Shown here: one piece after another, positions 26,237 through 62,973 of the stretch
Layout of the letters: each line of letters opens with the position of its first letter
How positions within the stretch are numbered: the first letter of the stretch is position 1
DNA from: an uncultured Balneolaceae bacterium
GTDB taxonomy: Bacteria; Bacteroidota; Rhodothermia; Balneolales; Balneolaceae
Direction: 5' to 3'
NCBI GenBank assembly: GCA_963974345.1
Contig: CAXBBW010000018.1
Coordinates: forward strand, 2,369-66,368
Length of the DNA: 64,000 nt
The notes under the pieces: generated by a model
Databases searched by the model: none
Told to the model about the DNA's origin: nothing
Seen by the model: the letters and a program-made list of their open reading frames with translations, nothing else
Program-made: the position numbers and the translations under genes

Positions 26237-27820
26237 ACCTCCCTTGATACCTGCTACTTTGCTTTTTACAGGCTGTTCCTCCCATCCTTATTAACGAGGG
26301 GATTGAGGGAAGATCGGTTTATCAATTGGTTCAATAATCTGCTTTAGAAACAAGATCAAAGCCCCCAAAAATAAGACCGGGAAACATGGGTATGAAGAAT
26401 CCGGAGAGTTGGTAGGATCGTAAGCGGGGAAGAATTTCAACGGATCGTCAAAACGAAATCTACATGGTTTCCGGCGACTTTTCGTTCTTTTGGTCACTCA
26501 AAAGGACAAACCCTTCATCGCTGGAGGAATGACCTCCCCTGATACCTGCCACATTGCTCTTTTCAGGCAGTTCCTCCCCTCCTTACTAAGGAGGGGATTG
26601 AGAGGAGGTCGGTTTATCAATTGGTTCAATAATCTGCTTTAGAAACAAGATCAAAGCCTCCAAAAACAAGTCCAAAAGAAATGCGGTAGGCTTAGGCGTA
26701 GAGCTAGGAAGTACCCAGTTGTAGAAAGGAAATCAACGGATAGAAAAGGGAACATCTTCATTTCTTTTGGTGACTTTTCGTTCTTTTGGTCACTCAAAAG
26801 AACAAACCCTTCATCGCTGGAGGAATGACCTCCCCTGATACCTGCTATATTGCTCTTTATAGGCTGTTCCTCCCCTCCTTACTAAGGAGGGGATTGAGGG
26901 GAGGTCGTTTATTACTGGTACCGATGATCTGCTTCAGAAACAAGATTAAAGCCCCCAAAACAAGTCCAAAAGAAATGCGGTAGGCTTAGGCGTAGAGCTA
27001 GGAAGTACCCAGTTGTAGAAAGGAAATCAACGGGTAGGAAAGGGAACATCTTCATTTCTTTTGGTGTCTTTTCGTTCTTTTGGTCACTCAAAAGAACAAA
27101 CGGAATATATATTAGGTCTCAAAAATTAATAGCCTAATGATAACATACAGGCTTCTATCCACGAAGTTCCTTCGGAAGTATCCTCAGGATGACTATGGAA
27201 GATAATAATCAGCCTTTGAATTGTTGTTACCGGAGTTGAATAAAGTTCTTTAAACAATTGAACCAAATTCATGCAACAATTGAAGAGAGTTTTTATAAGA
27301 ACCCAAACGAGTTTGTCTATAAACTTAACTGAGTTTATATAAGAACTTTAAAAAGTTTTACTGAAAACTTTTTCTACACGTATCGACAGTTCGTAACGGA
27401 CATCTAAACGCAACGCATTAGATCTGGAGCTTCGTGAATACCTACCACATTGCTCTTTTCAAGCAGTTCCTCCCCTCCTTAGTAACGAGGGGATTGAGGG
27501 ATGTCGATTTTTCAATTGGTTCGATGATCTGCTTCAGAAACAAAATCAAAGCCCCCAAAACAAGTCCGGGAAACATGGGTATGAAGAATCCAGAGAGTTG
27601 GTAGGATCGTAAGCGGGGAAGAATTTCAACGGATCGTCAAAACGAAATCTACATGTTTTCCGGCGACTTTTCGTCCTTTTGGTCGCTCAAAAGAACAAAC
27701 CCTTCATCGCTAAAGGAATGACCTCCCCTGATACCTGCCACATTGATCTTTAATAAGCAATTCCTCCCCTCCTTATTAACGAGGGGATTGAGGGAAGGTC
27801 GTTTTTTACTGGTTTCAATA
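26237..27820. repeat. Array of ~295-bp structured non-coding repeats
   Basis: Units: 26237-26531, 26532-26827, 26828-27101, then a 335-bp unrelated insert, 27437-27720, and a head-only unit 27721-27820. Each unit has a head with nested inverted repeats (e.g. GACCTCCCCT 26827-26836 / AGGGGAGGTC 26897-26906 enclosing TCCCCTCCTT-ACT-AAGGAGGGGA), a central module, a tail in two variants and an end hairpin TTCTTTTG-GTCACT-CAAAAGAA. Periods measured: 295, 296 and 293 bp. Confidence 0.9.
27166..27193 (-). repeat. Solo copy of the GIY-YIG-element terminal motif (GTCATCCTGAGGATACTTCCGAAGGAAC on the minus strand)
   Basis: GTTCCTTCGGAAGTATCCTCAGGATGAC closely matches the right inverted repeat at 56221-56250. 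A weaker copy, CCTCAGAGATGAC, lies at 27872-27884. Confidence 0.6.
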
Positions 27821-27968
27821 GTATCACCTAGAACAACGCTGTGTGCTTCTTTCAAACCAAAGTACCCTGCCTCCTCAGAGATGACCAAATAGACGAAATA
27901 CCCAAAAAATAATCGCATTCCTTGTCTCTTTAAATACAATATTGTTCTGTAATCAAGAACGATCAATT

Positions 27969-44525: not shown

Positions 44526-44553
44526 GATACTTCAGAAGTATCCTCAGAAGGAC
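44526..44553 (-). repeat. Solo variant of the GIY-YIG-element terminal motif between convergent genes
   Basis: GATACTTCAGAAGTATCCTCAGAAGGAC aligns with 27166-27193 and 56223-56250. It contains the hairpin GATACTT-CAG-AAGTATC. Confidence 0.5.
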
Positions 44554-48924: not shown

Positions 48925-48983
48925 GGGTCAGAAGGAGTAGATGTAGATTTTTTCCAATTCATTCAGAGCGAAAGCGATGAAAC
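48925..48983 (+). repeat. Solo left-end copy of the GIY-YIG element (no ORF)
   Basis: GGGGTCAGAAGGAGTAGATGTAGA...TTCATTCAGAGCGAAAGCGATGAAAC parallels 55704-55776 (GGGTCATCCATGTAGATGTCAG...GTCATTCTGAGCGAATGCGAAGAAC). Confidence 0.5.
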
Positions 48984-55290: not shown

Positions 55291-55662
55291 ATGGATCGCA
55301 CACTCAAACTTGAAGAATTAGCCACTTTTGGCTTTTCAATATTCCTATTCAATCAAACTGAATACGCTTGGTGGATGTATGTAGCTTTGATTTTAGTACC
55401 TGATATTGGAATGATCGGATATATTATAAATACTAAGATTGGAGCACTCACCTACAACCTGTTCCACCACAAAGGAATTGCCCTATGTATCTTAATTCTA
55501 GGTTATTACTATTCGATGGAATGGCTAGTTCTTACAGGAATCATTCTTTTCGGCCATTCAGCATTAGACAGAATGTTAGGTTATGGATTAAAATACGAGG
55601 ATAGTTTTAAGCATACACATTTAGGATGGCTGAATGGAGAGGAACCTCAAAACCCTTCATAA
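55291..55662 (+). CDS. DUF4260-like small membrane protein
   Basis: Four hydrophobic segments; LVPDIGMIGYIIN...YNLFHHKG block as I recall for DUF4260. Confidence 0.55.
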   Translation: MDRTLKLEELATFGFSIFLFNQTEYAWWMYVALILVPDIGMIGYIINTKIGALTYNLFHHKGIALCILILGYYYSMEWLVLTGIILFGHSALDRMLGYGLKYEDSFKHTHLGWLNGEEPQNPS

Positions 55663-55749
55663 ACTTATCATCCTTTTAGAAATCAAGTAATTCGTTTTCA
55701 GTCAGGGTCATCCATGTAGATGTCAGGAATTCGTTGACAGTTTTCTTTT

Positions 55750-56252
55750 GGGTCATTCTGAGCGAATGCGAAGAACCTTGGCGGATGAGTGCATCGTTTC
55801 CCCTCTCAATTCATTTTTTTGTAAGGAACCTCTCTTTCACAGGTCTAACTATACTATGAAAGAATATTATGTCTATATCGTGACAAACCCAAGTAAAACT
55901 ACCTTATACACAGGAGTAACCAACCATTTAGAAAGACGATTGATTGAACATTATCACAACAAAGGGAATCAAGATACTTTTGCTGGGAAATATTACTGCT
56001 ACAACTTATTGTATTATGAACCTTTCCAAACATCTCATGAAGCAATCCAAGCAGAAAAGTATATAAAAGGGAAAAACAGATCTAAAAAGGAAGCTATTAT
56101 AAAAGAACGCAATCCTTCATTGGCTTTTTTTAAACAGGAAGGTATTGGGTTACTGGCCACCGAAGTGAATCCTTTGCTCTGGCAATCAGATAATTCATAA
56201 CGAGGGTAGTTTATCTCGCCAAGGTCCTTCGGAGGTATCCTCAGGATGACCC
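55750..56252 (+). mobile_element. 503-bp unit: GIY-YIG nuclease gene bracketed by ~35-bp imperfect terminal inverted repeats (putative mobile or selfish cassette)
   Basis: Left end GGGTCATTCTGAGCGAATGCGAAGAACCTTGGCGG (55750-55784). The reverse complement of the right end (56216-56252) reads GGGTCATCCTGAGGATACCTCCGAAGGACCTTGGCGA. Both share GGGTCATYCTGAG at the tips and CGAAGRACCTTGGCG at the inner edges. Confidence 0.55.
55856..56200 (+). CDS. GIY-YIG nuclease family protein (UPF0213/YhbQ-like), 114 aa
   Basis: MKEYYVYIVTNPSKTTLYTGVTNHLERRLIEHY...YYCYNLLYYEPF...AIQAEKYIKGKNRSKK matches the GIY...YxG...R..EH...E pattern. The ATG at 55856 is preferred; the longer TTG ORF (55748) would translate the inverted repeat. 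Confidence 0.8.
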   Translation: MKEYYVYIVTNPSKTTLYTGVTNHLERRLIEHYHNKGNQDTFAGKYYCYNLLYYEPFQTSHEAIQAEKYIKGKNRSKKEAIIKERNPSLAFFKQEGIGLLATEVNPLLWQSDNS

Positions 56253-56364
56253 TACTTAGGATGTGGGAAAAGCTAAAACTAATCAGTTCCAAATAAGACG
56301 TCGAATTATCTACCTTCTAAAGGAATAACTGGATTTCTTTTCATTGAAAAATTTTACAGGATTG

Positions 56365-57645
56365 CTACATCAACTCCAGAATAGCATTATATATCCCATC
56401 AATCTCATTTTCTGTAACACAGTATGGTGGCATCAAATAAAGTACGTTTCCTAATGGTCGTAGCAGGTATCCTAAATCCAATGCTTGGGTTCTTAATACT
56501 TTTGAAATAGGATTTAAATAACCTTCTTCCCATCCTGTTTCGCCACCATCTACAATATCCATTGCCGCTACAGTACCTTTAACTCTTAAATTTGAAATGC
56601 GTGGATGAGATTTTAGTCGTTCGAAATTTTTCAAATGGATAGACTCCATATTTTTGAACACTGATTCATTTTCAATCAATAGCTTCCATGAAGCTAAACC
56701 AGCGGCACAACCTAATGGATTTCCGGTGTAACTATGTCCGTGCCAAAATGTTTTTATTGGTTCAGATGAGTTAAAACTTTCATATATATTATCACTGCAA
56801 ATCGTTGCACTCAAAGGCATAAACCCCCCTGTTATGCCTTTACTCAAACAAATAATATCAGGTTCAACCTGAGCTTTTAAACAAGCAAAATAATCACCTG
56901 TTCTACCAAAACCAGTCATTACTTCATCAAAAATTAGTAGCACTTCAAATTGTCTATTAGACCAATGAAGTTTTTGAAGGAATTCTTCGGAACACATTCG
57001 CATCCCTCCAGCACCTTGAATCAAAGGCTCAATTAAAATACCTGCGTATTTATCAGGATTATTACTTAGTAATTTTTCTAAGTGATCAATAACAGCATCT
57101 TCTTTATTCGCACGATGTTCGTCCCCTATCCATGTTTCAGGAAATGGGATCACTTCTACATCAAACATCCAATCCTTGAACACCTCAGTAAACAAAGATC
57201 TTTCTCCTACCGACATCGCTCCAAGTGTATCACCGTGGTAAGCACCTTCAAAACAAATAAACGTCTTACGATCTTCACCCAAATTTTTCCAGTGCTGATA
57301 CGCGATCTTCATAGCCACTTCAACAGATGTAGAGCCATTATCAGAATAAAAAAGACGATTTAAGTTCTTTGGTAATTTTGAAGTGATTACCTCCGCTAAT
57401 TGCTCTGCTGGGTCATGAGTAAACCCTGCGAAAATTACGTGCTCTAAGGTTTGAGCCTGCTTATAAATGGCTTTCGCGATATCAGGATGAGAATGTCCGT
57501 GCATATTCACCCACCAACTCGATATGCAATCCAAAACAGTACGACCATCTTCTAAATTCAAATATGCACCTTTCCCACTTTTTACTTTAAGTGGCTCAGG
57601 CGAGCCTTTAATGATTGTAAATGGATGCCAAATGTTTTTATGCAT
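56365..57645 (-). CDS. bioA: Adenosylmethionine-8-amino-7-oxononanoate aminotransferase
   Basis: Class III aminotransferase; WHPF, SWWVNMHGH, DEVMTGFGRTG, LSKGITGG (PLP lysine). Confidence 0.9.
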   Translation of the reverse strand: MHKNIWHPFTIIKGSPEPLKVKSGKGAYLNLEDGRTVLDCISSWWVNMHGHSHPDIAKAIYKQAQTLEHVIFAGFTHDPAEQLAEVITSKLPKNLNRLFYSDNGSTSVEVAMKIAYQHWKNLGEDRKTFICFEGAYHGDTLGAMSVGERSLFTEVFKDWMFDVEVIPFPETWIGDEHRANKEDAVIDHLEKLLSNNPDKYAGILIEPLIQGAGGMRMCSEEFLQKLHWSNRQFEVLLIFDEVMTGFGRTGDYFACLKAQVEPDIICLSKGITGGFMPLSATICSDNIYESFNSSEPIKTFWHGHSYTGNPLGCAAGLASWKLLIENESVFKNMESIHLKNFERLKSHPRISNLRVKGTVAAMDIVDGGETGWEEGYLNPISKVLRTQALDLGYLLRPLGNVLYLMPPYCVTENEIDGIYNAILELM

Positions 57646-62936: not shown

Positions 62937-62973
62937 GTCATTCTCTAGCTACTACCTACTGCCAAAGGATGAC
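62937..62973. repeat. Miniature inverted repeat made of the two tip motifs of the GIY-YIG element
   Basis: GTCATTCT (62937-62944) ... 21 nt ... AGGATGAC (62966-62973). Confidence 0.35.

Follow-up and report, generated by a model that had tools for sequence, protein, structure and literature searches.

Single-domain GIY-YIG nucleases that partner with a hairpin repeat have been described by Chenal et al. (Nat Commun 2025, PMC11893778). These Ssn proteins, which fall in CDD cd10448, bind the repeat NTS (CGTCATTCCCGCGMAVGCGGGAATCYRG), or more generally the SRM, in single-stranded DNA only, and cut at a site a few nucleotides upstream of it (PMC11893778). The three bases 5' of the palindrome are important for cutting and the C that follows it for binding, and SRM lie near 71% of Ssn homologues, on both sides in 42% (PMC11893778). 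The system makes transformation by NTS-bearing DNA less efficient in Neisseria, and SsnA of N. meningitidis does not bind RNA (PMC11893778). The same authors noted the insertion-sequence look of the NTS-ssnA-NTS arrangement and its parallel with REP/RAYT systems and BIMEs, and they raised the idea of a mobile element as a hypothesis; the characterised Ssn enzymes only cut, with no strand transfer known and no transposition demonstrated (PMC11893778).

Our results make it probable that the locus described here is of the Ssn type, that is, a single-domain GIY-YIG gene bracketed heads outward by cognate hairpins with tandem GA in the stem (GA-type hairpins), a variant of the SRM. Since the same architecture was reported by Chenal et al., the locus would be a new example of the Ssn/hairpin system and not a new kind of element; the gene-plus-repeat partnership, the IS-like look and the REP/RAYT analogy are already published (PMC11893778). 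Specific to the locus are the GA-type hairpin class, the presence of several gene/hairpin pairs in one genome, and a cassette that has been copied as a unit.

The window analysed, a 64-kb stretch of DNA, is taken from contig 18 of an assembly of 3.84 Mb with 36% G+C. A DUF4260 gene (55291-55662) is followed by a 114-aa ORF (55856-56200, plus strand), with which a bioA-like class-III aminotransferase gene (56365-57645, minus strand) is convergent. An earlier note on this DNA had described the ORF as a GIY-YIG gene standing alone between 35-bp terminal inverted repeats (TIRs) with conserved ends and a diverged middle, and had seen no target-site duplication. All of this was seen again at the locus: the arms match at 55750-55762 and 56240-56252 (13 nt, 1 mismatch) and at 55769-55783 and 56217-56231 (15 nt, 1 mismatch), the ORF is the sole gene between them, its product matches the Pfam GIY-YIG family (E 1.2e-14), and again no duplication was visible. 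A chance inverted repeat was rejected, since within the 64-kb window both arm sub-motifs occur at 0 mismatches in these two places only.

The Pfam match, the only one of the protein, is to PF01541 over residues 4-78, without an added DNA-binding domain. Y7, Y18/G20 and E67 do not vary among nine aligned relatives, which comprise orthologues and other Ssn-like proteins of the genome, and these residues fall where Chenal et al. mutated Y6, Y17 and E64 (PMC11893778). The nearest homologue loci are those of Balneolaceae MAGs. Orthologues with 64-72% identity are encoded in five genomes of the same genus (G001, G002, G003, G005, G009) and in one of another genus of the family (G017), and two genes of the same genome that lie beside canonical NTS-like repeats encode proteins with 41-44% identity (E 1e-16 to 2e-14). 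Of the earlier label, GIY-YIG stands and "UPF0213/YhbQ-like" is imprecise, because Ssn proteins are placed in cd10448 (PMC11893778) and the UPF0213 structures in the PDB match weakly (E 2.7e-5); NCBIfam returned just one sub-threshold match, to a group I intron endonuclease.

Comparison with the tails of the orthologues revealed that the reading frame leaves theirs from a run of seven T (56125-56131) onwards. The other frame, read from 56130, gives LNRKVLGYWPPK and a stop, which is the conserved C-terminal tail (...LGYWPPK, stop), and the run and this alternative-frame tail together occupy 56125..56168 on the plus strand. A TARA Oceans metagenome scaffold has the same 114-aa form, but it is 100% identical to the window and thus not independent of it. 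With the conserved tail out of frame, this copy of the nuclease may be impaired, and the hairpins could also be served by another GA-type gene of the genome (C13 59154), whose frame is not interrupted by a stop.

Two features of the earlier description had to be redrawn. First, to call the arms TIRs is too simple, because either arm folds on itself and its pairing is held by compensatory changes; as each arm is a hairpin of its own, the "diverged middle" becomes a compensated inner stem. Both arms follow the general layout GTC, ATYCT, GA, short stem-loop, GA, AGRAT, C. The left SRM-like hairpin (55752..55777, plus strand) is of type A and reads GTC-ATTCT-GA-GC-GAAT-GC-GA-AGAA-CC, with the GTCAT head and the C after the palindrome as in the published NTS; the arm as first drawn (55750-55784) also includes a tail, CTTGGCGG, that pairs with 56217-56223. 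The right SRM-like hairpin (56223..56250, minus strand; first drawn as 56217-56252) reads GTC-ATCCT-GA-GGA-TACC-TCC-GA-AGGA-CC and is of type B, for which the covariation is given below.

Secondly, the limits of the unit are not 55750-56252, since the sequence that is repeated elsewhere runs from about 55704 to 56329. At its left edge lies an outer repeat module (AGGGTCATCCATGTAGATGTCAGGAATTCGTTGACAGTTTTC; 55704..55745, plus strand) that is conserved at the left edge of other unit copies and is inverted relative to the right outer module (56297..56329, minus strand). The extra GGGTCATCC that had been pointed out at 55705-55713 is present and is the head of this module, found in the other copies of the unit too; the module core has 8 matching sites genome-wide, of which at least four are solo. 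Between the right hairpin and the right module, the five-copy alignment delimits a spacer (56253..56296) with a decayed 9-bp hairpin, which in other copies reads ATTTGGGAA...TTCCCAAAT. Immediately 5' of the ATG there is a conserved leader, TTTTTTTGTAAGGAAC...GGTCTAAC (55813..55855, plus strand), possibly a promoter or a short leader. The leader box also precedes the sister-species orthologues and four of the five other Ssn-like genes of the genome, and it occurs in 4 of 79 more distant homologue loci. Within the genus the arrangement directly 5' of ssn-like start codons is the box TTTTGTAAGGAR followed, some 20 nt on, by GGTCTAAC (window 55813-55855; L093-L097). A sigma-70 promoter scan performed no better than on shuffled sequence, and a terminator scan made no call and showed no T-tract.

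In the genome as a whole two hairpin types recur, A (GTCATTCTGAGCGAAAGCGAAGAAYC) and B (GTCATCCTGAGGATACYTCCGAAGGAYC), with at least 31 well-formed copies, 30 of 31 outside long ORFs. The hairpins have the GTCAT head and, for the most part, the ATC tail; the two window arms end in ACC. Strict GA-type matches number 22, against 0 for a reversed control pattern; a generic GA-hairpin finder was dropped as too permissive, as it gave 93 matches in contig C1 against 55 in its shuffle. Five pairs of hairpins form heads-outward doublets with 22-45 nt between them, in the geometry of the gene bracket. A wider heads-outward pair at C15:48783-49340 (L229) encloses some 500 non-coding nt in which no trace of a GIY-YIG gene remains, and just upstream of it lies a sub-threshold Rfam match to whalefall-1 (23.6 bits, cut-off 37).

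The earlier note had listed five related end motifs in the window and held that such motifs are always intergenic. Three of the five were recovered, all intergenic: a clean solo type-B hairpin (GTCATCCTGAGGATACTTCCGAAGGAAC; 27166..27193, minus strand), a decayed left end consisting of an outer-module remnant and a type-A-like hairpin, TTCA-GA-GC-GAAA-GC-GA-TGAA (48925..48983, plus strand), and a degenerate type-B copy between convergent genes (44526..44553, minus strand). The motifs at 27872-27884 and 62937-62973 are too weak to be retained. Only one of the five, 27872-27884, falls within an ORF of at least 90 aa, a 105-aa minus-strand ORF (27649-27966) that we judge to be spurious; the other four are clear of such ORFs.

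The pairing of the hairpins is under selection. Pairing holds in 96% of cells over 41 distinct type-B sequences, which come from the genus and from its neighbours, and double-change cells number 41 compared with 12.3 +/- 2.9 in shuffles (0/500), with compensatory changes at three pairs; slid-alignment controls collapse. Nearest-neighbour DNA folding energies of the arms were no better than those of shuffles (z -0.2 to -1.0), so the case for a hairpin rests on covariation. A hammerhead ribozyme, suggested by a CUGA...GAA resemblance, was rejected on reading the sequence, because it has neither the second GA nor the three-way junction.

Such conservation could also be taken to mean that the hairpins are mainly RNA elements, terminator-like, transcript-stabilising or protein-binding stem-loops with tandem G·A pairs, and that the bracket around the gene is regulatory. 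The strict conservation of the tandem G·A and of the UACY/GNRA-like loops, the compensatory nature of the stem changes, and the position of the copies between genes, some of them convergent, would all fit. We nevertheless find this reading improbable. There is neither a T-tract nor a terminator call; at gathering thresholds Rfam matched nothing in the window but a tRNA at its start, and nothing meaningful in 55600-56400 at E<=10; and with respect to the genes around them the copies point either way. Moreover, the conserved GTC head and the trailing C lie outside the stem, at positions important for cutting and binding of DNA by Ssn, and RNA is not bound by the N. meningitidis SsnA (PMC11893778).

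An Ssn-type locus calls for a bond between gene and hairpin, and the earlier claim of a partnership between the nuclease gene and the scattered hairpins was borne out by bracketed orthologues elsewhere, by co-occurrence, by deletion copies and ORF-less hairpin doublets, and by shorter spacers in sister species. The orthologues in G001, G002, G003, G005, G009 and G017 occupy at least three other genomic contexts, with hairpins close by. In the five of the same genus the TTTTGTAAGGA leader, which is conserved, has a plus-strand hairpin before it, and 14-57 nt past the stop comes an inverted one; the orthologue of G017 has hairpins around the gene, without the leader. Hairpins and nuclease homologues also co-occur at the level of genomes. 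Strict GA-type counts in ten sister species range from 1 to 130 (at least 10 in nine of them), with 0 for the reversed control everywhere, and 0-1 such hairpins were counted in each of the 11 relatives that lack a homologue at E<=1e-10, the genomes compared being related and not independent samples. Two exceptions were encountered: G010 has 13 hairpins and a homologue of just 45% identity, and G016 has a 52% homologue and 0 hairpins.

The linkage extends to distant phyla. Around more distant homologues, a structural detector placed an SRM-like hairpin near the gene in 24 of 80 loci and on both sides in 10, and over these 80 loci hairpin density is 0.56/kb near the gene versus 0.05/kb in the outer flanks, an 11-fold enrichment. 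In the reverse test, a GIY-YIG homologue directly adjoins the hairpin in 4 of 80 loci that were picked from other phyla by the hairpin pattern alone, and one of the four (L167) shows the same inverted bracket. The matches listed from a GA-type scan of the genome collection include Chloroflexota, Acidobacteriota, Nitrospirota, CPR groups, Bacteroidota and others, and 84 of the 113 matches listed have an inner stem of at least 2 bp. One Balneolaceae MAG (L011) carries seven GA-type hairpins of alternating orientation, with a GTCTT head and in two sequence classes, directly upstream of an ssn gene (about 30-470 nt from it).

These findings bear on the proposition that the hairpins are ordinary REP-type repeats, spread by a Y1 (RAYT/IS200-like) transposase and flanking the GIY-YIG gene by chance. 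The genome does have one Y1 transposase-like gene (C7 6611-7162; PF01797, E 2e-10), and intergenic sites, doublets and mosaics are REP-like behaviour. That gene, however, is flanked by palindromes of its own (e.g. GATCTCTTAAGTCTGAGACTTAAGAG), which reappear in the same contig at a distance of about 5 kb and are unrelated to the GA-type hairpins, and it is Ssn homologues that the latter track across genomes and ssn genes that they adjoin in several phyla. RAYT-driven REP spread was rejected on the difference between the two palindromes, and we regard chance flanking as highly improbable.

The earlier note had also proposed that paralogues without the repeats would speak against the partnership. 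Most other Ssn-like genes of the genome carry their own, different hairpin types, and two of them adjoin canonical NTS-like repeats. The gene at C13 137346 is accompanied by GTCATTCCCAYGAWGGTGGGAATC three times, that at C1 207631 by an inverted GTCATGCTGAATTTAGTTCAGCATC and an NTS-like repeat, and that at C13 59154 by GA-type hairpins. On either side of C27 2417 the repeats are of other, unrelated kinds, and beside C20 14507 no hairpin is evident. In the genome as a whole the degenerate SRM pattern of Chenal et al., HGTCWYN(0-2)YYVSBRHN(0-5)WNVSBRGN(0-2)RNCYNB (PMC11893778), has 11 matches, of which 7 are NTS-like hairpins of another class and 3 of these the exact Neisseria NTS consensus. The exact sites are C23:19148, C23:18560 and C15:100204; variants one or two positions off lie at C6:55729, C13:45476, C13:46469 and C1:207531, and one of these adjoins an Ssn-like gene. 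The same pattern has 0 matches in both window arms and in the type A and B consensus, where head and tail agree, because the tandem GA interrupts the stem. Elsewhere in the genome two further GIY-YIG genes, likewise small but with another motif (FxVYxL...), lie between duplicated tRNA 3' pieces (C2:323119-323349 and C22:16178-16372), with the same tRNA-like sequence just up- and downstream of each, which looks like insertion of the gene into a tRNA gene or a tRNA array.

The whole 626-bp cassette (55704-56329) was copied to five loci and then underwent internal deletions. By blastn and alignment one of the five copies is coding, that of the window, and four are internally deleted with both ends present: C5 125895-125512, C14 73379-73713, C7 68430-68605 (only the tip of the right hairpin) and C6 165124-164965. 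Common to these four are the hairpins, the leader, pieces of the ORF, the 3' spacer and an outer module beyond each hairpin; they are 77-91% identical to the window copy, from which they differ by the internal deletions.

That the cassette was copied around follows from the far shorter spacers at the matching places in sister species. The DUF4260-bioA spacer measures 708 nt here versus 41 in G009, 35 in G006 and 41 in G001, and in G006 the spacers that correspond to the C14, C6 and C7 copies measure 145, 164 and 69 nt versus 838, 306 and 604 nt, respectively. For the C5 copy the sole usable comparison is G010 (413 nt there versus 594 nt here). In three further genomes, G002 (L085), G007 (L086) and G010 (L082), the DUF4260-bioA spacer, of 557 nt in G010, holds another hairpin variant, GTCATCCTGAACTTGTTTCAGGATC, inverted, which marks this spacer as a hot spot.

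The copying raises the question of whether the cassette moves autonomously as a selfish element, with the GIY-YIG nuclease acting as a transposase on the terminal hairpins, and with the doublets and deletion copies as non-autonomous offspring, a reading in line with the earlier note. Several observations are in line with this: five copies of the unit at unrelated loci, four of them deleted internally with both ends kept; five doublets with the cassette's heads-outward geometry; a spacer that is much shorter in at least one sister species at the window, C14, C6 and C7 copies, four of the five; and orthologues at different loci in different species. On the other hand, none of the five copies shows a target-site duplication, and at about 20% DNA divergence between the sister species exact junctions are unreadable, so that no exact empty site can be aligned. 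The degree of likeness among the copies gives no sign of recent activity. The two hairpins lie on opposite strands, which leaves one cleavable site per strand and is a misfit with the peel-and-paste mode of IS200/IS605. Furthermore, no strand transfer is known for the characterised Ssn enzymes, which only cut (PMC11893778), and blocks of this kind could also spread by recombination between dispersed repeats. Of the classical marks of an IS or MITE, a transposase domain is missing, as is a duplication at the five copies. We hold a transposing nuclease to be a tentative reading, less likely than not.

For the Ssn-type locus, a course of action can be proposed by analogy with the characterised enzymes. 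Most likely, the protein would bind the hairpin of the GTCAT...ATC strand in single-stranded DNA; that strand would then be cut a few nucleotides 5' of the motif, and double-stranded DNA, RNA and the complementary strand would be left uncut. The presumptive targets are the well-formed dispersed hairpins, at least 31 in number and nearly all outside long ORFs. As to its role, the system could restrict or modulate incoming single-stranded DNA, serve selfish spread, or both.

We would go further only with considerable reserve, and suggest as a doubtful but possible extension that the cassette is, or recently was, self-mobilising, with a GIY-YIG single-strand nuclease of about 100 aa as its sole protein, that the ORF-less doublets are its progeny, and that the GA-type hairpin represents a large, cross-phylum class of Ssn targets missed by the published motif. 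As a probable Ssn-type locus, the window copy adds a free-living marine lineage to the Ssn/SRM system. Since a widespread class escapes the published search pattern, published SRM counts may understate the system. With several nuclease/hairpin pairs of different types, a single genome provides natural material for tests of specificity, and Ssn enzymes attract interest for their site-specific cutting of single-stranded DNA. The copying of the cassette (five copies, deletion derivatives, short sister spacers) bears on the question of mobility. The basic picture in the literature is unchanged.

Comparison with known systems places the locus as follows. With GIY-YIG homing endonucleases of the I-TevI type it shares the catalytic domain and a selfish-looking setting, but it has no DNA-binding domain and no intron or phage context, and its target is a multi-copy hairpin, not one long allele-specific site. 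IS200/IS605 elements and MITEs likewise have subterminal hairpins recognised as single-stranded DNA, small size and ORF-less derivatives; here, in contrast, the end hairpins lie on opposite strands, and there is no known transposase family, target-site duplication or demonstrated transposition. REP/REPIN-RAYT systems and BIMEs resemble it in their short palindromic intergenic repeats, often in inverted doublets and mosaics, and in the tie to a single-copy gene which the repeats also flank, whereas the enzyme here is a GIY-YIG nuclease and not an HUH Y1 transposase, the repeat class is another, and the Y1 gene of the genome has other repeats. From the Ssn/SRM system it differs by the tandem G·A mismatches in the stem, which place it outside the published SRM pattern, by a marine Balneolaceae-like host that is neither symbiont nor pathogen, and by the extra outer modules, the deletion-derivative copies and the frameshifted C-terminal tail. 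With the same system it shares a GIY-YIG-only protein of about 100 aa; a gene bracketed by oriented hairpins whose head is GTCAT and whose tail is ATC; the GTC head, the palindrome starting ATYC and the C after the palindrome in both flanking hairpins; a repeat dispersed intergenically in tens to hundreds of copies; the co-occurrence of repeat and gene by genome; and several gene/repeat pairs of different specificities, the canonical NTS also being present in this genome.
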